NCBI GenBank assembly: GCA_041660605.1 | Contig: JBAZWB010000001.1 | Coordinates: forward strand, 750,503 to 814,502 | Origin: Patescibacteria group bacterium | Lineage (GTDB): Bacteria; Patescibacteriota; Patescibacteriia; UBA10025; JAHIVO01 | Direction of reading: 5' to 3' | DNA: 64,000 nt | In this document: piece after piece, positions 2,945 to 59,429 of the stretch | Layout: each line of letters starts with the position of its first letter | How positions within the stretch are numbered: the stretch's first letter is position 1 | Translations under genes and position numbers: made by a program | The notes under the pieces: model-generated | What the model was told of the DNA's origin: nothing | The model's database searches: none | Seen by the model: the letters and a program-made list of their open reading frames with translations, nothing else

Positions 2945-2995
2945 TAATCGATATTTTTTAATAAGCCTAAGCAAACCTGTAAGCCGAATTCTGTA

Positions 2996-3040
2996 CCCCC
3001 ACACTAATAAATTGAAATTTTCAACTTATTAGTGTGGGGG
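2996..3040. repeat. GC-clamped hairpin/palindrome 1 (15-bp stem CCCCCACACTAATAA/TTATTAGTGTGGGGG, 15-nt loop)
   Basis: Perfect inverted repeat read directly. The whole 45 nt is nearly a perfect palindrome. Confidence 0.8.
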
Positions 3041-3093
3041 CGATGACCATCTATCTAGGCCCGATATTGCTATCGAGCTCAAGCAACCAACCC

Positions 3094-3155
3094 GCCCCAC
3101 ACCAATTCCATTTATCAACTAGCAAATATATCTATAAACAGAATTGGTGTGGGGC
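3094..3155. repeat. GC-clamped hairpin 2 (15-bp stem GCCCCACACCAATTC/GAATTGGTGTGGGGC, 32-nt AT-rich loop)
   Basis: Perfect inverted repeat. Same outer clamp as hairpin 1, different inner stem. Confidence 0.8.
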
Positions 3156-3244
3156 CTATTTGGTTTTGCACCGGATAGGGTTTTTCATACTAGCCAGTCG
3201 CCTGGCCAGCCTGTGAGCTCTTACCTCACCGCTTTTCACCCTTA

Positions 3245-3318
3245 CCCCCACACCTTTCGCATCATCATTATATTATAGCTTCTCTTATTGAATTAGAGGC
3301 ATGCGAAAGGTGTGGGGG
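3245..3318. repeat. GC-clamped hairpin 3 (18-bp stem CCCCCACACCTTTCGCAT/ATGCGAAAGGTGTGGGGG, 38-nt loop)
   Basis: Perfect inverted repeat. Same outer clamp, different inner stem. Confidence 0.8.
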
Positions 3319-3456
3319 CGGTATTGTCTCTGTGACACTCTCCCTGGACTTCAAATTTTTAAAATGCTATAGCACTTTCAAAAATCTTACTTCCGGTCGC
3401 CCTTAGCGACTACCCGCTTCTCCGGCTTATTAGCCGGAGGGTGTTCGGACTTTCCT

Positions 3457-3524
3457 CCCCCCACACCAATACGTAAAAATATATTCTGAAATAATGAGTA
3501 ATTCTAATGTATTGGTGTGGGGGG
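3457..3524. repeat. GC-clamped hairpin 4 (16-bp stem CCCCCCACACCAATAC/GTATTGGTGTGGGGGG, 36-nt loop)
   Basis: Perfect inverted repeat. Same outer clamp, different inner stem. Confidence 0.8.
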
Positions 3525-3577
3525 CGATCATCCAGCTTACTTAGGCTTAATTTTGATAATAGCGAAATAAGGGTATT

Positions 3578-6278: not shown

Positions 6279-7984
6279 ATTACTTCAGACATTTTTAAAT
6301 CATTCATTTTCAATTGAAGCTCCTTGCTGCCGTTCCATTCATTAACCGATACTTCGAAAATTATGTCAATCATATCGCCGATTTTAAGCTCATTCCCCCA
6401 GCCATTACCAAACCCAAAAGCGATAACTTTTCTAGTAGTTGATTTTTGCTGCAGGACCAGGCGCAAATGCTTGCCGTCATTGCCGACTTTTTGCAGATCA
6501 ACAACCTCTAAGCGGTTAGCGATAAAATGCGGACTCGGGTTGCCCTCGCCAAACGGACCGAAATTTCCCAATTGAACTACGAGATCCCAGTCTATCTGAC
6601 TTAATTCCGCTTCGCAGTCGATAAAAAACTTTTTTACCATATCCTCTTTATTTATCAGCTTATCGGCCAGACTCTCCATCTTTTTCTTAAATTTTTCTAA
6701 ATTGCTCTTTTTCAGGGTAAACCCGCAAGCCGCCGCATGCCCGCCAAACCTTTCCAGCAATCCCCGCGAAGCAATCAATGCCTTGGTAATGTCGAAAGCC
6801 GGTATGGACCGCCCAGAACCGACTATTTCACCGTCTCTTTCTCCCATGATAATAACCGGCCGGCTATATTCATCTGCCAGGCGTCCGGCTACCAGTCCGA
6901 CGATGCCGACGGTCCAGTCTTTGCCGTTGGCGAATAATATTTTTTGGCTGGCTATTTTGCCTATCTGTTTTTTCGACTCTTTGACGATTTTATCGGTCTG
7001 CTGCTGCCTTTTTTTGTTGGTTTCTTCCAGCTGCATAGCCACCTTTTTCGCTACTTTAATGTCATTAGTCATCAGTAATTCATAAGCGGTATTGGCATGA
7101 TCAATGCGGCCGGCGGCATTCAGCCGCGGTACAATGCCGAAAGCCACACTGACGGAATCCAGGGTTTCAAGGCTGAAACGGGTTGAAGCAATTAATTCAT
7201 GCAAGCCCGGCCGACGGGTTTTTTTCAGGACTACCATGCCGTATTTTACCAGCGTCCGGTTTTCCCCGACCAAAGAAACGCAATCTCCGATCGTACCTAT
7301 AGCTACTAAATCAAGAAGCCATTTTTCAAAACCAGGCTCAAGTTTCTTGTTTTTATCCTCTCTGACCAGCGCTTCTGCCAGTTTGAAAGCTACTCCCACG
7401 CCGGCTAGATCCATATATGGATAATTATCACCCGGGACGCGGGGGTTGATAATAGCCAAAGCCTGCGGCAGCTCAGGCTGCGGTTCATGATGGTCGGTAA
7501 TAATCACATCAATGCCCTTCTCTCTCGCTGAATTCACTTCCTCCACATTGGCAATGCCGCAGTCAACGGTGATGATCAGCTGGGTGCCATTTTTTGCCAA
7601 TTCATTTACCGTCTTCAAGTTCATGCCGTAGCCTTCTGACATACGGTGCGGAATATAAACATTTACTTCGCCGCCCAGCGCTTTCAGCGTGGTGACCAGG
7701 GTAACGGTGGCGCAAACACCATCAGCGTCATAGTCGCCATGCACTGTAATCTTCTCTTTGTTCTGGATTGCCTGAAAAATCCTCTTTACCGCTTTGGGCA
7801 TGTCTTTGAATAAAAAAGGGTCGTGAATATCCTGCCCGTAATCGGGATTTAAAAACTCGTCTATTGATCCCTGACTTTTTAGCCCGCGATTAAACAACAG
7901 CTGCAATACAACCGGGCTGATTTCAGGAAATTTACTCTTAATTTCTTCTGGGATTGGCTTGGCAATCTGCCATTTTGTTTTCAT
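6275..7984 (-). CDS. recJ: Single-stranded-DNA-specific exonuclease RecJ (DHH/DHHA1)
   Basis: ITVHGDYDADGVCATV and ITDHH motifs, GGH C-terminal domain. Start trimmed to MKTKWQIAKP (ATG 7984), 14 nt after a minus-strand TATAAT (7998-8003). Confidence 0.85.
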   Translation of the reverse strand: MKTKWQIAKPIPEEIKSKFPEISPVVLQLLFNRGLKSQGSIDEFLNPDYGQDIHDPFLFKDMPKAVKRIFQAIQNKEKITVHGDYDADGVCATVTLVTTLKALGGEVNVYIPHRMSEGYGMNLKTVNELAKNGTQLIITVDCGIANVEEVNSAREKGIDVIITDHHEPQPELPQALAIINPRVPGDNYPYMDLAGVGVAFKLAEALVREDKNKKLEPGFEKWLLDLVAIGTIGDCVSLVGENRTLVKYGMVVLKKTRRPGLHELIASTRFSLETLDSVSVAFGIVPRLNAAGRIDHANTAYELLMTNDIKVAKKVAMQLEETNKKRQQQTDKIVKESKKQIGKIASQKILFANGKDWTVGIVGLVAGRLADEYSRPVIIMGERDGEIVGSGRSIPAFDITKALIASRGLLERFGGHAAACGFTLKKSNLEKFKKKMESLADKLINKEDMVKKFFIDCEAELSQIDWDLVVQLGNFGPFGEGNPSPHFIANRLEVVDLQKVGNDGKHLRLVLQQKSTTRKVIAFGFGNGWGNELKIGDMIDIIFEVSVNEWNGSKELQLKMNDLKMSEVI

Positions 7985-8102
7985 AGATTGGCTTTGATTA
8001 TAGCATTTACTGTCCGTTATTTCAATAAATAAATCACGGTGAAAATTTTGTTTTATTTCCAATGTACGCTATAATAATATTATTATTAAACCTAAAAAGA
8101 TA

Positions 8103-8786
8103 ATGGAACCGGATAATCTACTAAATGGCAAGAAAGAGAAGTGGTTTCCCCTTTTCTGGGATTGGGAACAGCGCTGGATCGCCGCAGTCGTACCAAAATT
8201 ACCAAGCTACCTAAACGGCTACAGCCTGACTCTTATGAGCATTCCGGAAATATTTTTAATATTGCTTTTCAGCTGGCTAGCCCAAAACAGCCTTTTTTGG
8301 CTGATCGGCGTTTCCCTCGTAATTTTATTCCAGTACCTTACGGATTCACTAGATGGCGCTGTCGGCCGTTACAGGAAATCAGGGCTTGAAAAATGGGGAT
8401 ACTACATGGACCATCTGCTTGATTTTTTATTTATGAGTTCAATTATCATCGGCTACGCCTTTTTTATGCCGGAGAATCTGCTTTCACTCATTAGCCTGCT
8501 AGCCATCGTCGGCAGTTTTTACGTCAGCTCTTTCCTGGCCTCAAACGTCACCAGAAAATTCAGGATGAGCTATTATAAAATCGGGCCGACGGAAATGAGA
8601 TTCTTTATCATTGGACTGAATATTCTGATGATTATTTTCAAACCGACTTTTATGACCACCCTTCTGCCTATACTGACTGCCGTCTTCCTGGCCATCCTGG
8701 TCTTTACGATTTATAGTACGCAAAAACAAATAATCGACATTGATAAAGATAAAATTAATCTCACCAGCAAAAATAATGGAAACTAA
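8103..8786 (+). CDS. CDP-alcohol phosphatidyltransferase family membrane protein
   Basis: DSLDGAVGRYRKSGLEKWGYYMDHLLD fits the D-G-x2-A-R...G...D-x3-D signature. Multi-TM. Confidence 0.6.
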   Translation: MEPDNLLNGKKEKWFPLFWDWEQRWIAAVVPKLPSYLNGYSLTLMSIPEIFLILLFSWLAQNSLFWLIGVSLVILFQYLTDSLDGAVGRYRKSGLEKWGYYMDHLLDFLFMSSIIIGYAFFMPENLLSLISLLAIVGSFYVSSFLASNVTRKFRMSYYKIGPTEMRFFIIGLNILMIIFKPTFMTTLLPILTAVFLAILVFTIYSTQKQIIDIDKDKINLTSKNNGN

Positions 8787-9342
8787 ACATCTACTCAATT
8801 TTTTCTTTGAACTGGGCATCCTGAAAAAAGTTGAGCATGAAGGCTGGCGTCTGGCCGGTGTCGAGCATCCGGAAAGCGTTTCTGATCATTCTCTGCGTGC
8901 CGCGCAGATCGGCTTTGTGCTGGCCAAGCTGGAAAAACACAAAAATGCCTTTGAGGTATGCACCATGATTGTTTTCCATGATATCGCCGAATGCCGCACC
9001 GGAGACGTGCATAAAGTCGCTAATCGATACATTAAAAGGGACGAGGAAACTGCCGTAAAAGAACAGACAGTGAATTTGGAGGAAATCGGGCAGGAAATTT
9101 TTTCCTTATGGCAGCAGACAGAAAATAAAAACTCAACTGCTGGCATTATTGCCAAAGATGCTGATCTGATTGAACAGGCCATAACTGCCAAAGAATATAT
9201 GGAAAACGGGCATTCACTGGCATCGGACTGGATAAAAAACGTGAAAAAATCATTAGCTACCGCCTCAGCTAAGAAAATCATCGCTAATTTGGATAATATC
9301 AAATCCACCGATTGGTGGCAGGATCTAAAAAAAATCGACTAA
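8776..9342 (+). CDS. HD-domain phosphohydrolase (YfbR-like 5'-deoxynucleotidase family)
   Basis: H...HD metal motif (HSLRAAQ ... FHDIAE ... D). Start moved to METKHLL. Confidence 0.75.
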   Translation: METKHLLNFFFELGILKKVEHEGWRLAGVEHPESVSDHSLRAAQIGFVLAKLEKHKNAFEVCTMIVFHDIAECRTGDVHKVANRYIKRDEETAVKEQTVNLEEIGQEIFSLWQQTENKNSTAGIIAKDADLIEQAITAKEYMENGHSLASDWIKNVKKSLATASAKKIIANLDNIKSTDWWQDLKKID

Positions 9343-48149: not shown

Positions 48150-48215
48150 GATATGGGAAGTGGGACGTAGAAGTGAGATGCGGGTCGGGTAATGAGAAGC
48201 TAGGAGTGAGGCAAG
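48150..48215. repeat. Left arm of ~55-bp purine-rich imperfect inverted repeat bracketing the four-helix-bundle gene 48200..48598
   Basis: ...GAAGTGAGATGCGGGTCGGGTAATGAGAAGCTAGGAGTGAGG... versus the reverse complement of 48615-48671 ...TAAGTGAGGTTAGATGTGGGTTTCGGATGTGTGAGGTGGGG... Confidence 0.6.
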
Positions 48216-48598
48216 TTACTTATCCAGTTTTTTCCAAGATTATAAAGTTGCTTGCCTGCTATATTGTACGTTTCAATTAGTTTACTGCATATTTCAGAAG
48301 AAACGTATTTACTATAAACATCTCTACATACGCTCAAATGATGAATCATCTCATTGCTCTCGCCGATTGCATCATCAATGTACTTTTTCCAACTACGTTT
48401 ATAATTTTTCTTTGCGTAACCTTCGGCCAGTTGAGCCGGTGCACTCTTACAGGCTCTTCTTAATTGATCTGCTAAATCAAATCTTTCTTCTTTTGGTAAA
48501 TTTGGCACAACTTTTGTTAAAACAATTACCATTGCTTTATATAAATTCTGGTAAACTATTAGATCAGTATAACTTTTAATTGGCATATTATTTAGCAA
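48200..48598 (-). CDS. Four-helix-bundle protein (23S rRNA IVS protein family)
   Basis: LIVYQNLYKAMVIVLTKVVPNLPKEERFDLADQLRRACKSAPAQLAEGYAK matches the family. Probable ATG start at 48586. Confidence 0.8.
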   Translation of the reverse strand: MLNNMPIKSYTDLIVYQNLYKAMVIVLTKVVPNLPKEERFDLADQLRRACKSAPAQLAEGYAKKNYKRSWKKYIDDAIGESNEMIHHLSVCRDVYSKYVSSEICSKLIETYNIAGKQLYNLGKNWISNLPHS

Positions 48599-48614
48599 TT
48601 TTTTTGTTAATTAA

Positions 48615-48671
48615 ATCCCCACCTCACACATCCGAAACCCACATCTAACCTCACTTATTCCGAAATCCCTC
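48615..48671. repeat. Right arm of inverted repeat bracketing the four-helix-bundle gene 48200..48598
   Basis: Pyrimidine-rich on plus strand (atccccacctcacacatccgaaacccacatctaacctcacttattccgaaatccctc), complementary to the left arm. Confidence 0.6.
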
Positions 48672-49241
48672 ATCTTTTTGCATAATATCCTCAATTATAT
48701 CTCTTAGAAAGTCAGCTTTAGTCTTCTTCTTACGCTTTGACATATACTGTAGATACCTTTCCATCTGGGAATTTATTCTTAAAGTGAATTTGATCGTCGG
48801 TTTTTCCTTAATTCCCTTTCCCTGGCCGACTTCGTTGATAAAATCCCCAACTACTTGCGCCAAATCGTTTTTGGAATACGACTTCATTACCATGAATTCC
48901 GGCGTGTTTTTCTTGGTTAAATACCCATGCGCCACCTTTTCCGGCGTGCCTTTTTGGTACAAATATAACAATGGTTTTTTCTGTGAAATGGCGTAGGCCA
49001 ATAAATAACCGATTTCCTGGTCTGGCTGCGAAGCTTCTACAATTAAACAATCCATTTTATCCAGTAATATTTCCCCAGCTTCAGTCATCTGTTCCAGCTC
49101 TTCCTTTTTAAAATCCGTATTATTTTCATTTGACGATGCCACCACGAAAACACCGGATTGTCTTAAAGTTTCAACAATTTTTTTGTAATTTTGATCCAGT
49201 TCGGTAGTTGAGATTAGTGGACTGAAGAAATAGGTTCTCAT
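48651..49241 (-). CDS. Nucleoside 2-deoxyribosyltransferase-like domain fused to a C-terminal ribbon-helix-helix (CopG/Arc-like) domain
   Basis: N-terminal MRTYFFSPL ... CLIVEASQPDQEIGYLLAYAISQKKPLLYLY resembles the Nuc_deoxyrib_tr fold. C-terminal KPTIKFTLRINSQMERYLQYMSKRKKKTKADFLRDIIEDIM reads as beta-strand plus two helices. Confidence 0.5.
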   Translation of the reverse strand: MRTYFFSPLISTTELDQNYKKIVETLRQSGVFVVASSNENNTDFKKEELEQMTEAGEILLDKMDCLIVEASQPDQEIGYLLAYAISQKKPLLYLYQKGTPEKVAHGYLTKKNTPEFMVMKSYSKNDLAQVVGDFINEVGQGKGIKEKPTIKFTLRINSQMERYLQYMSKRKKKTKADFLRDIIEDIMQKDEGFRNK

Positions 49242-49280
49242 AGTTTATTTAATGGTTTCGGTTGTGGCTTTAAAAGAAAT

Positions 49281-49339
49281 AAGTCTTAGGTTTAAAGTTG
49301 AAAGAAGAAAGTATGGATAAAAGATTAAGGTCTTAGGTC
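49281..49339. repeat. Left arm of inverted repeat bracketing the four-helix-bundle gene 49325..49720
   Basis: AAGTTGAAAGAAGAAAGTATGGATAAAAG versus the reverse complement of the right flank AAGTTGAAAGTTTAAGGAGGAAGGAATGGAATAAAG. Confidence 0.55.
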
Positions 49340-49720
49340 TTTTCGATTAAAATTCTTCCAGGCGAGGCTTAATTTATACAATTGTTTATTAATTAAATCA
49401 TAATTCTTTAATAAACGTTCACATATTTTTTTATCAATATTACCCCCATATATGTCCATGCAATAACTTATATGTACTATGGTCTCATTGCATTCACCCA
49501 TTGCATCATCAAGGTATTTTTTGAAACTCTTTGGCATATGTTTCTTGGCAAACCCTTCCGCAATTAAAGGCGCAATCGCTTTTGCGGATCTTCCTAATTG
49601 ATCAACTAGGCCATACCGCTCTGAAGCAGGTAATTTAACTACAACATCTTTCATAACCACGACAGCGGAACTATAGGCATTTTGGTAAACATATAAATCT
49701 TTAAAACTTTGAATTGCCAT
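49325..49720 (-). CDS. Four-helix-bundle protein (23S rRNA IVS protein family)
   Basis: FKDLYVYQNAYSSAVVVMKDVVVKLPASERYGLVDQLGRSAKAIAPLIAEGFAK matches the family. Confidence 0.8.
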   Translation of the reverse strand: MAIQSFKDLYVYQNAYSSAVVVMKDVVVKLPASERYGLVDQLGRSAKAIAPLIAEGFAKKHMPKSFKKYLDDAMGECNETIVHISYCMDIYGGNIDKKICERLLKNYDLINKQLYKLSLAWKNFNRKDLRP

Positions 49721-49736
49721 ATTCTTAAAACTTTAA

Positions 49737-49783
49737 ACTTTATTCCATTCCTTCCTCCTTAAACTTTCAACTTATGACCTATA
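49737..49783. repeat. Right arm of inverted repeat bracketing the four-helix-bundle gene 49325..49720
   Basis: See left arm (49281..49339). Confidence 0.55.
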
Positions 49784-49804
49784 TCAATTTAAAATATTTA
49801 TTAA

Positions 49805-50806
49805 TCAATCCCCCAAACCATCCTCCCACATTAAAATTCTGATCTTACCAAGGTCCCTCGTCTGCCCCAAAACCCACATGAACTTAGCAAAAGCCGTTTC
49901 AAAAGTCATATTATTTACCAGAATGTACTCGCGTTTTTTCTTTTTAATATCCAGGGCAAAAGGATTGTGAGCCACCACGGGTATTTTCTTCTCATAAGCT
50001 TTTTCTAGAACCGGTTTGTATGAATCAGGAAATAAATTTGTATTGAAGCTTTTTACCATTATCCCCTGACAACCACCGTTGAGCATATTATCCAAAAGCT
50101 CCGGTCCTGCGCCGGGGTACAGTTGCATCAGGCAAACCTGCGGTTCAATTTTATCGTTCAATTTAATTTTACTATTTGATCTTTGCCTTACTTTATTAAA
50201 AAGCTTAATGCCGAAATCCACCTTGCCCAACATACCATCTTTATAAGCGTCAAAAAAATTAAATGACGGCGTGTCGCTTTTGGCAACCTGTGTTGCCCTG
50301 ATTAACCGATTGCCGAACATTATCGCCACCTCTCCCAGATCCATAGTAGCCACCTGTATGGCATTAATTAAGTTGGCTTTTACTCCCAATGATTTATAAC
50401 CGGAAATCAGGCCGGATAAATCCTGCTTGTCTGATTCCGTCACTTCTGCTGACAATGGTGAACCGGTGAAAACAACGGGCTTGCCTAGGTTCTGCAGCAT
50501 AAACGACATCATGCTGGCAGTATATATCATGGTGTCCACGCCGTGGGTAATGACAAAACCGTCGCATTTGTCATATAGCTTTGCGATTTCCCGGGCCAAT
50601 CTGCCCCACAGCTCCGGTTTGATTTCCGACGCGTCTTCGCCAAACACAAAAACCGGTTCAATGTCCGCTATCAAGCTAATTTCCGGCACCGCTTCAAGCC
50701 ACGGCTTTATGTCAGCCGATTTTTGCACGGATAATACCTTGTCATCAGCGATTAACGCCGATCCTCCGCAGAACAACAAGGCTATTTTTTGGTTTGATTT
50801 AGGCAT
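49805..50806 (-). CDS. L-asparaginase-family protein with both catalytic threonines substituted (probably non-canonical or inactive)
   Basis: Asparaginase fold motifs, but TGGTIAG is replaced by CGGSALIA and hGTDTm by HGVDTM. Start trimmed to MPKSNQKIALLFCGG (ATG 50806). Confidence 0.65.
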   Translation of the reverse strand: MPKSNQKIALLFCGGSALIADDKVLSVQKSADIKPWLEAVPEISLIADIEPVFVFGEDASEIKPELWGRLAREIAKLYDKCDGFVITHGVDTMIYTASMMSFMLQNLGKPVVFTGSPLSAEVTESDKQDLSGLISGYKSLGVKANLINAIQVATMDLGEVAIMFGNRLIRATQVAKSDTPSFNFFDAYKDGMLGKVDFGIKLFNKVRQRSNSKIKLNDKIEPQVCLMQLYPGAGPELLDNMLNGGCQGIMVKSFNTNLFPDSYKPVLEKAYEKKIPVVAHNPFALDIKKKKREYILVNNMTFETAFAKFMWVLGQTRDLGKIRILMWEDGLGD

Positions 50807-50834
50807 AACTCTTATATTTCTGATACACACGTCG

Positions 50835-50923
50835 TAAAGATTCTTCGCTTCGCTCTGAATGACAGTGTAAACGATCGTCATTCAGAGGACCCTGAACGAA
50901 GTGAAGGGGACGAAGAATCTTTA
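50835..50923. other. ~90-nt long stem-loop: 13-bp and 11-bp perfect stems (TAAAGATTCTTCG...CTCTGAATGAC / GTCATTCAGAG...CGAAGAATCTTTA) immediately 5' of the asparaginase-family gene
   Basis: Inverted repeats read directly from sequence. No T-run on either side. Confidence 0.65.
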
Positions 50924-50943
50924 TGCAGTTATTTTCGTAATTT

Positions 50944-50998
50944 CTAATTATGAATTTCTAATTTCTAATAAAATCCCAATTCATTAATTATTTAATGT
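50944..50998. repeat. Left arm of AT-rich inverted repeat (ATTAGAAATT-type) bracketing the four-helix-bundle gene 50999..51370
   Basis: Reverse complement ...TTATTAGAAATTAGAAATTCATAATTAGAAATT... versus right flank 51371-51409 ...TGATTAGAAATTAAGAATTAGTAATTAGCAAT... Confidence 0.45.
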
Positions 50999-51370
50999 CT
51001 AACTGTTTCTATTAGTAGAATTAACAATAGCGTTAAAAATTAAATTTAGTTCTTTTGCTTCCTGGTAAATAATATTTACTTTTTCTTCTTGGATAGGGTC
51101 GGCCGTAGCAATCATTTTCAACCAATGTTTTGTCTCCCTGGCTTCTTTTTTACAGATGCCAATTTTGTGCTTAAAGTCTTTCCTGGACTCAGCATCATCC
51201 GCTTCACAATAATTCGAACCAACGCTGGTTGCTGATCTAACTAATTGAGATATTAATGGTCTGGTTACTACACTCTCCGGTATTTGCTTAGCGAACCTAA
51301 TTGCATCAATGCCAAATTTTCTTGTCCTCTCCTCCAAATCGTACTTTTTTGTCATTACTTCATTAGTCAT
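50999..51370 (-). CDS. Four-helix-bundle protein (23S rRNA IVS protein family)
   Basis: ISQLVRSATSVGSNYCEADDAESRKDFKHKIGICKKEARETKHWL matches the family. Confidence 0.75.
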   Translation of the reverse strand: MTNEVMTKKYDLEERTRKFGIDAIRFAKQIPESVVTRPLISQLVRSATSVGSNYCEADDAESRKDFKHKIGICKKEARETKHWLKMIATADPIQEEKVNIIYQEAKELNLIFNAIVNSTNRNS

Positions 51371-51409
51371 TGGAGCTTGATTAGAAATTAAGAATTAGTA
51401 ATTAGCAAT

Positions 51410-52855
51410 TTATAATTGGTTATTATCCGTGTTAGCGGTAATTCTTTCCACCGCCTCCTGATACAACACCGCATTTGCTAACGTAATCCCCGCCTGCTCT
51501 CTTAATTCAACTAAAAACTTCACATCCTGGATAGTAAATGTGCTTTTATCTTTCTTTTGATCTAATAAAGCTAATGCAAAAACCTCTTCTTCCGTATTGA
51601 AAGGGAGGACTAGACTGGCATTAAATTTTTTCATTTCCTTTTCGGCTTTTTGTAATGTTTCCTTTTCAAACTTACCCTGCCTTTCCTCCAGTAAATGCGG
51701 AATTTCTTCGTAAATCAACGGTTCATTATACTTCTCGAAGTATTTAATTAAATTATTCTGCAAATCAATGCTTTCATTTGAATCATCATTTTCATAAATA
51801 AGCCTCTGCTCTTTATGATTAAGTATAAAAAGTTTAGCAATCTCAACACCTAAGTACTCTTTAATTTTTAGGCTAATAATCTTTACCAGTTTTTCTAAAT
51901 CTGTTTCCCTTGAAATTGCCTCTCTTAATTCTTTGACTGCCAGATCAATACTCTTTTTGCCTTTGAACAATGAATTAATGGCTTTCTCCACCAACATTTT
52001 TAAAGGTGGGAAACCGAGGGCTACTAAGGCAATTAAAACAATTGAAGTCCGCCCGGGTGTAATATTCCAATAATTTTCAATCGTTGTTCGCAGAAGTAAA
52101 GCAACATATGTATAAATTGCTAGTGTAACGATAAGTGAAATTATATATATCAATCCACGCTTGATAACAACCTTTATATCTAACAATCGATATCGTGCCA
52201 TGGCATAAGAACTCATTATTGCGAAAACTATTGTTATACTTACTAGTCCTGTAAATGTAAAATTACTGACTTTACCAACTAAACCATTAAGACCACTGGC
52301 TGTTAAGGCCGAAATGATTGCGATTAAGTATCCTACAATAATATATTTTATCTGGCTTTTTTCAATTGTTGAAACTAATTTATATTTTTTTATTAAAGAG
52401 ATTGGCCCAATAAAAATAAAATATACAACAATAATGATAAAATATAAGGCAAACACCGGTTTATTATATTTCGCTAAATTATAATCGTAAATTGTCACGA
52501 TTTTACCAAACACACCGAGTAATGATACAAAAATAATTGGGATTGCAATTGCTAATTCATAAAAAATGTTTATCCTTAAATTTTTTTTGGGAAAGTGAAG
52601 ACAAAACAGCACAAACCAGTATGCAACCCATGGTGCTAAAATAAAATCAATACTAATAATCACTTTATGAACGTCAAATGGAATTCTTGTTACCATTTCA
52701 AGCATTGAGCATGTAATATAAGCAAAACCGAATAAAATAGTAATAAAAAATAATGCATACGTTTTATTACGTTTCCAATTAATAATTATAAATACAAATA
52801 AGCTTAGATATGCTAATACATTTATTCCAGCTACTATTTCTTCAGGTGTAATCAT
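51410..52855 (-). CDS. 7TM-GAF sensor-module protein lacking kinase transmitter domains (paralogue A)
   Basis: Same 7TM plus C-terminal GAF-like architecture as B and C, with a divergent C-terminus (...ANAVLYQEAVERITANTDNNQL*). Confidence 0.7.
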   Translation of the reverse strand: MITPEEIVAGINVLAYLSLFVFIIINWKRNKTYALFFITILFGFAYITCSMLEMVTRIPFDVHKVIISIDFILAPWVAYWFVLFCLHFPKKNLRINIFYELAIAIPIIFVSLLGVFGKIVTIYDYNLAKYNKPVFALYFIIIVVYFIFIGPISLIKKYKLVSTIEKSQIKYIIVGYLIAIISALTASGLNGLVGKVSNFTFTGLVSITIVFAIMSSYAMARYRLLDIKVVIKRGLIYIISLIVTLAIYTYVALLLRTTIENYWNITPGRTSIVLIALVALGFPPLKMLVEKAINSLFKGKKSIDLAVKELREAISRETDLEKLVKIISLKIKEYLGVEIAKLFILNHKEQRLIYENDDSNESIDLQNNLIKYFEKYNEPLIYEEIPHLLEERQGKFEKETLQKAEKEMKKFNASLVLPFNTEEEVFALALLDQKKDKSTFTIQDVKFLVELREQAGITLANAVLYQEAVERITANTDNNQL

Positions 52856-52880
52856 TTAATTCCTATTATTTTCTTAATTT

Positions 52881-52912
52881 CCCGCGCCGTCGCACTTTAT
52901 TGCGCCGTCGCT
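52881..52912. repeat. Right GC-rich inverted repeat (reverse complement AGCGACGGCGCAATAAAGTGCGACGGCGCGGG) bounding the 7TM-GAF block
   Basis: See left copy (44940..44969). Confidence 0.6.
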
Positions 52913-52993
52913 ATATTTTTACCCTACTACTCCCTTTTTTTCCTGTCAAATCCCGGCTGTGGATAACCAAAAGCGATTGCTTTATTTAATTTC

Positions 52994-53020
52994 TTGACAA
53001 AAAATACCCCAAGCTATAAT
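52994..53020 (+). promoter_or_regulatory. Near-consensus sigma70-like promoter TTGACA-15/17-TATAAT(A) pointing into ORF-free region
   Basis: ttcTTGACAaaaaataccccaagcTATAATatg read directly. Confidence 0.5.
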
Positions 53021-53406
53021 ATGTAGTCCCGCACATTATTATCACATTTGCATATAAGGGTTCCGGTCATGGGCGAAATTCTGAACTTCCCTGTCAACCA
53101 ACAGGATTTCGTCCCCCCTCCCGGAGCCCGAAAATTTATAGTTCTTATCTAACGGTCCTTTGTCCATCCCTCCCTATTCAATGTTCAACCGGAGCCTACC
53201 CCACTCCAAACATTGTTTAGGCGCTTGTGACAAAGGGCCCTTTTTTTATTGCTAAATTATTTTATATATAATATAATAAAGATATAATAGTTCATCTAAT
53301 TTTTCTTTTCCCCACAAACTGGGAGGGTGGTTGAACGTTGTAAACCAAGGACAGTTCGTTTCATTGATGCTCATCGTATCTGCAAAAAGATACTGGCTTA
53401 TATTTC

Positions 53407-53457
53407 CTCCTCCAAACTAACAGACTATTTGTTACGTTTGGGGGAGTGTTTTTTTAT
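53407..53457 (+). terminator. Rho-independent terminator (CTCCTCCAAAC...GTTTGGGGGAG + T8)
   Basis: 11-bp stem with one G:U wobble, followed by tgttttttta. Confidence 0.65.
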
Positions 53458-53545
53458 ATTTAATATTTTGGTATTATAAAAACGCTGGCAAAATCTCATT
53501 GAGCAGAATCTTTGCTGGCCTCTTTATCAGAGTACCGCCATTCAC

Positions 53546-53595
53546 CGCCAGCCAAAAGTAATTGACCGTGTCCTGGTGTGTTTGGCGGTTTTTTT
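53546..53595 (+). terminator. Candidate terminator hairpin (CCGCCAGCCAAA...TTTGGCGG + T7)
   Basis: GC-rich stem with a long loop, followed by ttttttt. Confidence 0.35.
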
Positions 53596-53762
53596 ATCCA
53601 CTTGACTGTTTTTAAGGCTGTATTAGAATTACGGCAGAACGACCATCGGCCCACGATGGTTGTTCTTTTATTTAACCTAGATAAATTAAAGAATACTGAG
53701 TTTATCGAAGTGTTATTTTTTGCTCCTTAAAAGCTTCGGGAGCATGATTTTTTAACAAATAT

Positions 53763-53790
53763 TGACTCAGCAATTACCCTATGGTATAAA
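53763..53790 (+). promoter_or_regulatory. sigma70-like promoter TTGACT-16-TATAAA with extended -10 (TGgTATAAA)
   Basis: aTTGACTcagcaattaccctaTGgTATAAAaag read directly. About 270 nt upstream of the 54031 terminator. Confidence 0.5.
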
Positions 53791-53797
53791 AAGAACG

Positions 53798-54069
53798 GCC
53801 AGTACGGATGACTGCAACATTCGTCTGAACCTAGTTAGACCCATAGTCCGGGTCGCCTGATTCGGACTATGGTAATAGTACATTATTATCTAATGATAAG
53901 CCCCCCACTCACCAATAAGCAGGTCCCGCTTTTCAAGTGCTTGTCACTTCCTCCAAAAACCAAAGCAGCCAGGACATGGGTTCTGGTAGGTCTCTATTTA
54001 TGAAGCGGCAGCACAGCCTGCTTACCTAATGGTCTGAGTCGTTACCCAAAACGACTTGGACCTTTTTTT
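53798..54069 (+). ncRNA. Candidate non-coding RNA (~270 nt) bounded by promoter 53763-53790 and terminator 54031-54069; identity unknown
   Basis: No ORF of 60 aa or more. Internal complementary segments (AAGCAGG/CCTGCTT; CCCGCTT/AAGCGG; AAGTG/CACTT). Contains AAAGCAGCCAGG reminiscent of but not matching the SRP RNA domain IV. Confidence 0.3.
54031..54069 (+). terminator. Rho-independent terminator (GGTC-tga-GTCGTT-acccaaa-AACGAC-ttg-GACC + T7) convergent on murF stop
   Basis: Two-tier stem with T7 on the plus strand only. The minus strand has an A-run before the hairpin. Confidence 0.65.
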
Positions 54070-55366
54070 ATTCCCATTCTTCGCCCTGCCGCACCAGCAG
54101 TTCTTCGGCGCGCAACGGTTCGGCCATTAACTCTTTAACGACTTTTTCCATACGCGCGCCTTGCGAGCCCTTGATCAGCAAAATATCGCCCTGCCTGATT
54201 CTTTCCTGCAGGAATTTTCCCGCCAAATCAGAAGTATCAAAGGTAAAGACGCGTTCTTCGGTCAGGCCGTTTTGTTTGGCAGCGGCGGCGGTAATTTTCG
54301 AGCGCTCACCGACTGTCACTAATACGTCAACGATTTTAGCGGCAGTTTCGCCGACCTCGCGGTGACCCTGCTCGGTGTAATGCCCCAGCTCCAGCATATC
54401 ACCCAGCACGGCGAACTTGCGGCCAGTTGTTTTAGCTTTTTCCAATACACGCAAGGCAGCTTTAGCCGCCATAGGCGAGGAGTTATACGTGTCATCAATA
54501 ATAGTCGTGCGCTTAATGCCGGCAATGAGGCGCATGCGGCCGGCCGGTGGCTGATATTTTTTTAAAGCTGCAGAAATATCCGACTGGTTTAATCCAAAAC
54601 TCAGCCCAATCGCGGCGGCAGCCAGCGCGGCGTACACCTGGTGCTCGCCAAAAACGTTCGGCAGATAAATCGGCACTGATGATCCCTGATAGATCAATTT
54701 GAAGCTCAGGCCTTTTACCTGGCCGGCAGCCCAGGGATCCTGCGCCGGACCGGTAGAGATATCCAGTTCCACGGCGCGCACCATGGCCTGCTCGGAAAAA
54801 CCAAAGGTGATTATCTGCGCCCTGGTCTTATCCCGTGCCTGCGCCACTAATGTATCGTCAATATTCAGAATGGCAAAATCATTTTTTTTCAGATGTGAAA
54901 TTATTATCTGCTTTTCCCGCACTACGCGATCCAGAGTCTCAAAAAGCTCCAGATGCACCGGACCGATGGCAGTGATTACGCCCGCTTTGCATGGCGCCAG
55001 CTTAACAAGATAGCGCAGATCACCCGGCTTATCAGCGCCCATTTCCAATACTAAAATTTCCGGATAATCTTTTTGGCGGAATAAGATCAGGCTTAAAGCA
55101 TGAAAAAAAATGCCAATCCAGGCAAAAGGGTTTTTAAAGCCCGACTCCCTGCCTAAAATTGATAATGGCACTCCCAGCTCATTATTATAATTTTTTATAT
55201 TTTTGCGTACGCGAAATTTAGCGGATAAAACCGTGTATATCGCTTCTTTGGCAGAAGTCTTGCCCACACTGCCCGTGATGCCGACAACCTGCGGCTTATA
55301 CTTTCTCAAAACCCAGCCAGCCAGTACCCGCAGTTTCCATTGTATAATTTTTTTGAAAAAATTCAT
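54068..55366 (-). CDS. murF: UDP-N-acetylmuramoyl-tripeptide--D-alanyl-D-alanine ligase
   Basis: ITGSVGKTSAKE P-loop, NYNNELGVPLSIL (MurF NNxIGVP signature), Mur ligase C-terminal domain. Confidence 0.85.
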   Translation of the reverse strand: MNFFKKIIQWKLRVLAGWVLRKYKPQVVGITGSVGKTSAKEAIYTVLSAKFRVRKNIKNYNNELGVPLSILGRESGFKNPFAWIGIFFHALSLILFRQKDYPEILVLEMGADKPGDLRYLVKLAPCKAGVITAIGPVHLELFETLDRVVREKQIIISHLKKNDFAILNIDDTLVAQARDKTRAQIITFGFSEQAMVRAVELDISTGPAQDPWAAGQVKGLSFKLIYQGSSVPIYLPNVFGEHQVYAALAAAAIGLSFGLNQSDISAALKKYQPPAGRMRLIAGIKRTTIIDDTYNSSPMAAKAALRVLEKAKTTGRKFAVLGDMLELGHYTEQGHREVGETAAKIVDVLVTVGERSKITAAAAKQNGLTEERVFTFDTSDLAGKFLQERIRQGDILLIKGSQGARMEKVVKELMAEPLRAEELLVRQGEEWE

Positions 55367-55535
55367 TATGCTTTAGTTAAATATTTCAAGGACAAATTTT
55401 GCCACTCTAAAGCTGTCATCCTGAACTTGTTTCAGGATCTAGATTTAAGTCGAGATTCCGGATCAAGTCCGGAATGACAGAAGTAAAAAGCACAAATTTG
55501 TCCTTAAAGTATTAATTAGCCAACGTAAATCCCCC

Positions 55536-58870: not shown

Positions 58871-59302
58871 CTAAACGCCAAGATCATCCAACGCCTCAGC
58901 GATATCGCTCCCTCTCTTTTCCGTACCTTCCTTATATTTACTCCAGGCCGCCTCATCCCATATTTCCAAACGGTTATATAATCCGGCAATCACTACCTTC
59001 TTTTTTATAGTGGCATATTTGCGTAAATAATCAGGCAGAATAATTCTCCCCTGCCGGTCTATTTCGCAATCCATGGCGCCGGCCAGCATCAGCCTGGCAA
59101 AAGCCCGGGTATTGGCTTTAGAGATTGGCAGCTTGGAAAGCTTGTCAGCCAATGTCTCCCAATCTTTTTGGGGATAAAGAAAAAGACAGTTATCCAGACC
59201 GCGTGTGACAACCGCGCCTTTAGCCAATTCGTTGCGGAATTTTATGGGTACGGCTAATCTCCCCTTTTCATCAATAGAATGATTGTATTCGCCTATAAAC
59301 AT
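58871..59302 (-). CDS. mraZ: Transcriptional regulator MraZ
   Basis: MFIGEYNHSIDEKGRLAVP and a second repeat ...DRQGRIILP. Two MraZ/SpoVT-AbrB repeats. Start trimmed from the ORF-track GTG (59350) to ATG 59302. Confidence 0.85.
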   Translation of the reverse strand: MFIGEYNHSIDEKGRLAVPIKFRNELAKGAVVTRGLDNCLFLYPQKDWETLADKLSKLPISKANTRAFARLMLAGAMDCEIDRQGRIILPDYLRKYATIKKKVVIAGLYNRLEIWDEAAWSKYKEGTEKRGSDIAEALDDLGV

Positions 59303-59340
59303 TGAGTGCTTTTGAATAATATAAGTAAACAAATCCAGTG

Positions 59341-59387
59341 GCTTATCCACAGTTGAGGGTACTTATCCCCACATTTATCCACTTTTC
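59341..59387 (-). promoter_or_regulatory. Array of GTGG(A/G)TAA-type direct repeats at about 10.5-bp spacing in the mraZ 5' UTR (candidate MraZ operator)
   Basis: Minus strand reads GAAAAGTGGATAAATGTGGGGATAAGTACCCTCAACTGTGGATAAGC, just downstream of the -10 at 59401-59406. Confidence 0.5.
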
Positions 59388-59400
59388 ACCCTACTACTCC

Positions 59401-59429
59401 ATTTTACACCACTTTTATTGAATCGTCAA
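59401..59429 (-). promoter_or_regulatory. Candidate Pmra promoter (minus strand TTGACG-17-TAAAAT)
   Basis: Plus-strand cgtcaa at 59424-59429 and atttta at 59401-59406, with a 17-nt spacer. Confidence 0.5.

Follow-up and report, generated by a model that had tools for sequence, protein, structure and literature searches.

The 64,000-nt stretch of DNA analysed here (hereafter the window) comes from a chromosome of the Patescibacteria (candidate phyla radiation, CPR) and contains, at positions 52856-54067, about 1.2 kb of gene-free DNA between murF and a gene that we call gene A, the flanking genes being all on the minus strand. The murF product (54068-55366, minus strand) carries the Mur_ligase_M and Mur_ligase_C domains, and the gene is the last in an mraZ-mraW-ftsL-ftsI-murF cluster, with ftsI, ftsL, mraW and mraZ located 5' of it on the same strand. 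According to the original prediction this region is a non-coding RNA (ncRNA) locus without any open reading frame (ORF) of 60 amino acids or more. The absence of ORFs is borne out, the longest ones measuring 52, 50 and 50 amino acids, and an independent gene call on an identical contig (L001) likewise leaves the space from murF to gene A empty. An ncRNA locus is also still the best reading of the region, given its structured plus strand, its cluster of terminators with promoter-like sites and one unit with comparative support, except for the left 120 nt, to which we return below. On balance, we consider it probable that the region holds a clade-specific gene for a small hairpin RNA, here named U4, within a fast-evolving row of lineage-specific units that resemble small RNA (sRNA) genes. 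The features of U4 and of the segment following it are these.

53594-53673, plus strand: U4, with a TTATCCAC box (53594-53601) abutting the -35 element TTGACT (53602-53607), a 16-nt spacer and the -10 element TAGAAT (53624-53629)
53636-53666, plus strand: the U4 hairpin, 31 nt and 13 bp, 6 nt past the -10 element, composed of A-GAACGACCAUCG-GCCCA-CGAUGGUUGUUC-U and then UUUAUUU
53692-53753, plus strand: U5, two hairpins, AAUACU-loop-AGUGUU with a run of six U (53692-53721) and UGCUCC-loop-GGAGCA with a run of six U (53721-53753), with no promoter of its own seen

Our comparison set consisted of 80 murF loci from GTDB species representatives, 10 loci reached through closer MurF homologues and 9 found by scanning metagenomes for the hairpin pattern. 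The U4 hairpin occurs in 14 further loci from metagenomes and metagenome-assembled genomes (MAGs), which makes 15 in total, and wherever the flanks are long enough to judge, it is always in the neighbourhood extending from murF to the gene for the seven-transmembrane (7TM)/GAF protein. Among 185,579 species representatives the best match to the MurF protein of the window is 62% identical and belongs to a Kerfeldbacteria MAG, and the nearest non-identical MurF in a collection of 5.8 billion proteins shares 72% identity. In this 72% relative, the 29-nt core of the hairpin, GAACGACCATCG-GCCCA-CGATGGTTGTTC, is the same at 29 of 29 nt and its flanks are unalignable; the core is identical in most other loci too, in relatives with MurF sequences only 63-72% identical. 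The U4 hairpin is under strong purifying selection, together with a conserved promoter.

The few changes that do occur in the stem preserve pairing. Across the 15 sequences 97.9% of cells are paired and four pairs show double changes; none of 500 shuffles attains the covariation score, and sliding the partners collapses the pairing. Pair swaps include A-U to G-C and C-G to U-A (both in L087 and L094) and U-A to C-G (in L101); at the outermost position 12 of the 15 loci have A-U, U-A or G-C, and every one-sided change in the stem yields a G-U. There are 17 such G-U cells, including one G-U pair kept in 14 of 15 sequences, and since all of them would be A-C mismatches on the minus strand, it is the plus strand that must be functional. 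Neither positions 2-5 of the RCCCA pentaloop (CCCA) nor the two closing pairs vary. A comparative check for covariation had been proposed in the original prediction; it succeeded for U4 only, a hairpin that had been missed, and the units highlighted at the time turned out to have no detectable homologues.

A promoter of the TTGACA-16/17-TATAAT type precedes U4. It matches at least 10 of 12 consensus positions in 13 of the 15 loci, a level attained by 0.9% of 50-nt windows drawn at random from these loci. The end of the best match is 5-9 nt away from the stem in every one of the 15, with spacer sequences that differ from locus to locus. Upstream of it, at -43 to -52, a TTATCCACA-like box is present in 8 of 15 loci (background 0.06 per 100 nt), and downstream the hairpin is followed in most loci by a T-rich run. 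The hairpin occurs once in the window. Its covariance model detects it once on each contig of the clade and has no match in 80 more distant murF loci, so that the element is clade-specific and, as far as these contigs go, apparently single-copy.

The first hairpin of U5 is conserved with its flank in two relatives (83% over 88 nt in L091 and 79% over 82 nt in L101), in which conservation thus extends some 55 nt past the U4 hairpin. Because of this conservation, the U4 RNA may reach some 85-120 nt upon read-through of the first U-run, and U5 probably represents either back-up terminators or the 3' part of this longer form.

Several alternative identities of the U4 element were considered. A dif/Xer site, with its 11-6-11 layout and TTATG-type arm, is unlike it in sequence, there is no skew switch, and the G-U asymmetry and the promoter favour an RNA; the parS consensus bears no resemblance to it, and in the case of a LexA box the GAAC...GTTC halves are 21 nt apart, not 4. 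The loop does not satisfy the consensus positions of a tRNA anticodon or T-loop mimic. An ORF starting from an ATG in the 3' arm (MVVLLF...) ranges from 5 to more than 30 codons among loci, and L094 has no start codon.

Around U4 the plus strand holds four other units, none of them conserved.

52994-53250, plus strand: U1, promoter TTGACA-17-TAATAT (52994-53022), divergent from that of gene A; predicted RNA of about 220 nt (about 53029-53250)
53249-53458, plus strand: U2, promoter TTGCTA-17-TATAAT (53249-53277) or TTTATA-16-TATAAT (53261-53288); predicted RNA of about 165 nt, terminator 53407-53446 with a run of seven T, z -2.4
53469-53598, plus strand: U3, extended -10 element TG-n-TATTAT (53469-53477); predicted RNA of about 110 nt (53484-53597), terminator 53534-53589 with a run of seven T, z -2.5
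53762-54069, plus strand: U6, promoter TTGACT-17-(TG)TATAAA (53762-53790); predicted RNA of about 272 nt (53798-54069), minimum free energy (MFE) -91.3 kcal, z -5.95, terminator 54031-54062 with a run of seven T

The fold of U1 comprises two hairpins, one of 70 nt (53058-53128) and the other, of 86 nt (53154-53239), a terminator with its seven T (MFE -69.3, z -6.3); within this unit lies a 27-codon ORF (53069-53152) which does exist as predicted, and for which the proposed role of leader peptide or small protein finds no homologue at the peptide level. At the other end of the row, the T-run of the U6 terminator overlaps the murF stop codon (54068-54070, minus strand). The RNA of roughly 270 nt that had been predicted at 53798-54069 has the strong fold given above, and no homologue of it was detected in about 100 related loci. 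The same loci yielded no homologue of U1, U2, U3 or U6 when searched at the DNA level with blastn and nhmmer and at the peptide level with tblastx. A short CUCUU/AGAG hairpin before a terminator is common to U3 and the units that precede U4 in relatives, and the alignment is not convincing as evidence of homology.

Folding of the region was evaluated in sliding 200-nt segments against a background taken from a sample of the window (z -0.42 +/- 1.33, 5th percentile -2.6). From 52951 to 53901 the plus-strand folds have z values of -3 to -7.8, the lowest being that of the segment at 53501, in U3, while the RNase P RNA within the window, used as a control, gives -6 to -7.5; in nearly all segments of the region the plus strand is more stable than the minus strand. 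One segment elsewhere, 1001-1200 on the plus strand, which falls within a minus-strand ORF (447-1628), folds as strongly as RNase P RNA (z = -5.9) and may represent a structured RNA, antisense or embedded.

The three plus-strand terminators of the original prediction are real (53407-53446 with a T-run, -21.6 kcal; 53534-53589 with seven T, -22.4; 54031-54062 with seven T, -18.3), and it had passed over a stronger one at 53154-53239 with seven T (-33 kcal), the U4 hairpin itself with its T-run (-20.1) and the two further small hairpins with T-runs that form U5. A compact strong terminator is taken here to be a hairpin of at most 45 nt that has a T-run behind it and an energy no higher than -18 kcal; of the five in the whole 64 kb, three fall in this 1.2 kb, all on the plus strand. 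The next -35 element lies within a few bases of the T-run of each terminator, and relatives are alike in this respect (seven T, AT, TTGACA). Both promoters of the original prediction exist in a slightly different form. At 52994-53020 the TTGACA (52994-52999) is present, but no more than 15 nt separate it from the perfect TATAAT (53015-53020), a 17-nt spacer leading instead to TAATAT, a match of 10 of 12; in the second one TTGACT begins one base further left, at 53762 (53762-53767), and the spacer before the -10 element is 17 nt and not 16, with TG-n-TATAAA at 53782-53790. In the window the promoters of U1, U2 and U4 reach 10 of 12, and those of U3 and U6 are of the extended -10 type only.

No paralogy was found among the units beyond terminator tails and promoters, only short C-rich motifs being common to them, and the region contains no tandem repeats and no CRISPR- or TIGR-like array, its repeat pairs being of chance size. 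In the variable units, C-rich hexamers such as CCCTCC and CCTCCT are found on the strand predicted to be transcribed in four to five of nine loci, compared with zero to one for most hexamers on the other strand, and several of the C-rich tracts are unpaired in the predicted folds.

The region matches no RNA family that was searched for. At gathering score, the only Rfam 15 match in the whole window is RNase P RNA (class A; 2964-3543, minus strand), where 580 nt are matched to a model of 367 positions, which means that this RNA carries large insertions. When the search of 52700-54200 was relaxed to E values of up to 10, the best matches had E 1.2-9, all far under gathering, and included no SRP, 6S, tmRNA or RNase P RNA, in agreement with the original statement that none of the four could be recognised; the likeness to SRP RNA suggested for the last unit is not borne out, no match to it appearing even at this level. 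Riboswitch models and those of large ncRNAs (OLE, GOLLD, ROOL, HEARO) do not reach the gathering threshold in the region, ARAGORN finds no tRNA or tmRNA, and an Rfam search of the syntenic gaps of 11 relatives gave nothing relevant. FopS (RF04319) came up at E 2.8, which is chance level, and aligns chiefly to promoter and T-run. Homologues of the whole region were sought in the 80 GTDB murF loci and 20 further ones, which share nothing with it other than the hairpin and the promoter block of gene A, and phages, plasmids and viral contigs show no similarity to it. A decayed pseudogene was rejected after tblastn with 13 neighbouring proteins from relatives returned nothing beyond the hairpin itself, and a type I toxin-antitoxin or other small-protein gene after no conserved short ORF was found between loci. 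We conclude that the region, judged by these comparisons, fits no described RNA family, that U4, for which the comparative support is good, is a new candidate small RNA restricted to one clade, and that the remaining units make up a plausible, unproven set of lineage-specific sRNAs.

The left end of the region belongs to gene A, as the following features indicate.

51410-52855, minus strand: gene A, 481 amino acids, a 7TM/GAF membrane protein with a weak HisKA_7TM match and with GAF domains seen in orthologues
52856-52975, minus strand: gene A promoter and leader, with a TTATCCACA box (52958-52966), -35 element TTGACA (52949-52944), 17-nt spacer and -10 element TAGGGT (52926-52921)
52884-52911, minus strand: tandem direct repeat after the gene A promoter, GCGACGGCGC-N8-GCGACGGCGC, which on the plus strand is GCGCCGTCGC at 52884-52893 and 52902-52911

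A block covering 52877-52966 is conserved in eight loci, including the tandem repeat and a perfect TTATCCACA box, with diverged flanks on either side, and because of this conservation the left 120 nt are to be regarded as the minus-strand promoter and operator of gene A and not as ncRNA. The GCGACGGCGC repeat would be either the operator of a regulator or a 5'-leader element. Relatives also possess, in the same place, a promoter divergent from that of gene A.

The mraZ promoter resembles that of gene A. The two (52916-52938 and 59383-59405, both on the minus strand) share GGAGTAGTAGGGTAAAA, a 91% match over 23 nt, around the unusual -10 element TAGGGT, which follows TTGAC by 17 nt; the shared sequence is found in the gene A promoters of relatives as well, and it may denote a special promoter class or the site of a common regulator. 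The leader of mraZ (59343-59420, minus strand; mraZ itself is at 58871-59350) contains the direct repeats GTGGTG / GTGGATAA / GTGGGGATAA / GTGGATAA, which are conserved in six relatives (L082, L084, L086, L087, L100 and L101) and presumably constitute the MraZ operator. These boxes resemble DnaA boxes (TTATCCACA reversed), three perfect or near-perfect 'DnaA boxes' being clustered there. The annotated GTG start of mraZ falls inside the third box, and since MraZ is 143 amino acids long in relatives versus 159 here, the true start is probably further downstream.

Beyond gene A, to the left, are found a 23S_rRNA_IVP protein and an asparaginase; in fact 48200-51370 holds three paralogous genes for 23S_rRNA_IVP (four-helix-bundle) proteins, in between which lie the asparaginase gene and a gene of 196 amino acids, an arrangement common to relatives. 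Base composition changes sharply within 51400-55400, gene A and the DNA leftwards of it having 27-36% GC and murF and ftsI about 50%. In the close clade, the order murF, variable content, 7TM/GAF gene, asparaginase is kept, and the variable content differs among relatives: most have a PsbP-like gene of about 200 amino acids after murF that is not present in this window, and others have DUF2238, a hydrolase, a 628-amino-acid protein or small ORFs. Several relatives also contain 0.4-0.9 kb of gene-free DNA with rows of same-strand terminators (e.g. L087, L084/L096 and L092). The PsbP_2-like gene, which is membrane-anchored and convergent, ends with its stop codon 7-150 nt from the U4 hairpin in most relatives (L089 10032-10550, L092 1135-1650, L093 727-1350 and L084 9498-10085, among others). 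It was either lost from this window or never there, and U5 and U6 occupy its place. In the relative L099 (MurF 67% identical), 1.9 kb without called genes follow murF (7314-9177), with neither the hairpin nor a terminator row.

A number of observations weigh against reading the region as a row of sRNA genes. Consensus scanning alone is not significant, with 7 promoters versus 4.7 +/- 2.2 and 3 terminators versus 1.6 +/- 1.1 in shuffles, and the U6 promoter, unlisted by the scan tool, has a -10 element without the usual final T. The transcription of every unit, the transcript ends and all functions are predictions. Complementary targets within the window are not above chance, and no partner was found for any unit; duplex folding against 61 translation start regions is dominated by long-loop duplexes. 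Masking of Shine-Dalgarno sequences by the CCUCC/CCCUCC motifs, in the manner of LhrC, RsaE or the csRNAs, is unlikely because such sequences are not in evidence at any of the 61 gene starts of the window, where the preceding 25 nt are simply AT-rich. The functional reading of U1, U2, U3 and U6 rests on one sequence, since they have no homologue, and with a nearest relative as distant as 72% MurF identity, fast drift and lineage-specific RNAs are indistinguishable. As for U4, a near-invariant imperfect palindrome of 29 bp could also be a DNA site.

This last point leads to the main rival explanation for U4, namely that the conserved element is a DNA site for a dimeric protein (an operator, or a site of recombination or attachment, of replication or of segregation), with its variable surroundings produced by repeated insertion and deletion. 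Near-invariance, a single copy per contig and a 12-5-12 palindrome would suit such a site, as would the different gene content on both sides among relatives and the symmetric changes in L087 and L094, which would also fit dimer half-sites. Against this stand the 17 asymmetric cells, all of them G-U on one strand and A-C on the other, the sigma-70 promoter found at a constant 5-9 nt upstream in every locus even though the spacer is unconserved, and the T-rich run after the hairpin in most loci. Searches of viral contigs, phages and plasmids gave no match to the element, the GC-skew turn or change in gene orientation that dif/Ter needs is missing, and the dif and parS consensus sequences are unlike it; we regard a DNA site as decidedly improbable. 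A replication origin or a DnaA-titrating cluster of TTATCCACA boxes, with 53246-53290 as its AT-rich part, is scarcely credible. One perfect and one 8/9 DnaA-type box do occur in 52856-54067, and such boxes recur in relatives next to the promoters of U4 and of gene A, but the region has just these two, dnaA and dnaN are not nearby, cumulative GC skew falls steadily across the region with genes on the same strand on both sides, and the repeated operator of the mraZ promoter is made up of this type of box, so that it may be a MraZ site.

For the unconserved units the main rival is a non-functional, drifting spacer in which, U4 and the promoter of gene A excepted, terminators just stop stray or convergent transcription. 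That the sequences of U1-U3 and U6 are conserved in no relative, that relatives hold unrelated genes in the same gap and that L099 has its 1.9 kb without such units all speak for it. It does not account for z values down to -7.8, which are at the RNase P level, well beyond terminator hairpins and strand-specific, nor for the promoter-like site directly behind each terminator or the same-strand terminator rows in L087, L084/L096 and L092, and CPR genomes are compact; we judge it unlikely, while giving it more weight than any other alternative. A coding role for the units, as genes of very small proteins or of leader peptides, is far less likely still. The ORFs in question exist (27 amino acids at 53069-53152, 29 amino acids at 53331-53420 and 24 amino acids from the ATG of the U4 stem), two contain PPP runs, and in the absence of Shine-Dalgarno use a missing ribosome-binding site is no counter-argument; but outside the two blocks conserved as DNA no peptide is conserved between loci, the U4-stem ORF varies between 5 and more than 30 codons and lacks its start codon in L094, start codons are buried in strong stems, and no gene was called.

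The preferred reading, a U4 RNA gene within a row of sRNA-like units, is of a familiar kind, that of intergenic sRNA genes with promoters and intrinsic terminators. Tandem clusters of sRNA genes include LhrC1-4 of Listeria, the cia-dependent csRNAs of streptococci and FopS of Bacteroidetes. As in these clusters, short head-to-tail genes with their own promoters and intrinsic terminators appear to share one intergenic region, C-rich motifs are unpaired, and a membrane sensor-like gene adjoins; unlike in the LhrC and csRNA clusters, the units are not paralogues, there is no Shine-Dalgarno sequence to mask, and one unit only is conserved between genomes. Among hairpins that bind proteins through a sequence-specific stem and loop are the phage lambda boxB/nut element and the MS2 coat-protein operator. 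The fixed loop, closing pairs and non-Watson-Crick feature (G-U) of U4 recall these and suit protein recognition, whereas U4 is a free-standing gene with promoter and terminator, outside any mRNA or phage operon, and its RCCCA pentaloop matches neither. Like intrinsic terminators, U4 and the ends of all units consist of a GC-containing stem followed by a U-run; unlike these, in which the shape is kept and not the sequence, U4 is identical at 29 of 29 nt, has a promoter directly ahead and has nothing to terminate. U6, finally, is comparable in length and fold stability to SRP/4.5S, 6S, tmRNA and RNase P RNAs, but matches none of them in Rfam.

Under the preferred reading, the roughly 1.1 kb to the right of the gene A promoter would form five head-to-tail units on the plus strand, each transcribed from a sigma-70-type promoter directly after the preceding T-run. 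The strong U4 promoter, often with a TTATCCACA-like (DnaA-box or MraZ-box-like) site at its -35 element, would fire straight into the hairpin and yield a product of about 35-40 nt, or about 85-120 nt on read-through to the next small hairpins. Because the stem sequence, the G-U pair and the pentaloop are fixed, and not just the ability to pair, U4 would be a specific ligand, bound by a protein or docking with its loop onto a UGGGY-containing partner, as opposed to engaging in long antisense pairing; we thus see it as probably a protein-binding or loop-pairing regulatory RNA. Its promoter would be regulated through the TTATCCACA-like box, and the regulator could be MraZ or DnaA because the same box type (the GTGGATAA and GTGGGGATAA repeats) forms the apparent MraZ operator. 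U1, U2, U3 and U6 would be lineage-specific, structured, C-rich and fast-evolving regulatory sRNAs. Taken to its end, the proposal is highly speculative and we give it little credence in full: a stand-alone U4 RNA of about 35-40 nt, under the control of a DnaA/MraZ-like box, might act as a sequence-specific ligand or decoy of a conserved protein, or through its CCCA(C) loop on the GUGGG-type repeats of the mraZ leader, thereby tying division or replication control in these ultra-small CPR bacteria to a tiny RNA, and the neighbouring C-rich RNAs might be a fast-evolving set that does likewise where translation control through Shine-Dalgarno sequences is lacking.

If no unit is expressed, the region amounts to variable spacer of the ordinary sort and of little consequence. 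If the unconserved units are expressed, they would point to a fixed hotspot on the chromosome at which sRNA genes turn over rapidly, and should the full proposal be true, U4 would be among the smallest independently transcribed bacterial RNAs. Its position at the end of the division cluster and the mraZ-operator type of box in its promoter lead to a specific hypothesis of division control. To our knowledge, the regulatory RNAs of CPR bacteria, which are uncultured and have small genomes with little non-coding space, are almost uncharted, and a unit of promoter, hairpin and terminator conserved to the letter throughout a clade in which even MurF is just about 65-72% identical provides a concrete candidate for such an RNA.

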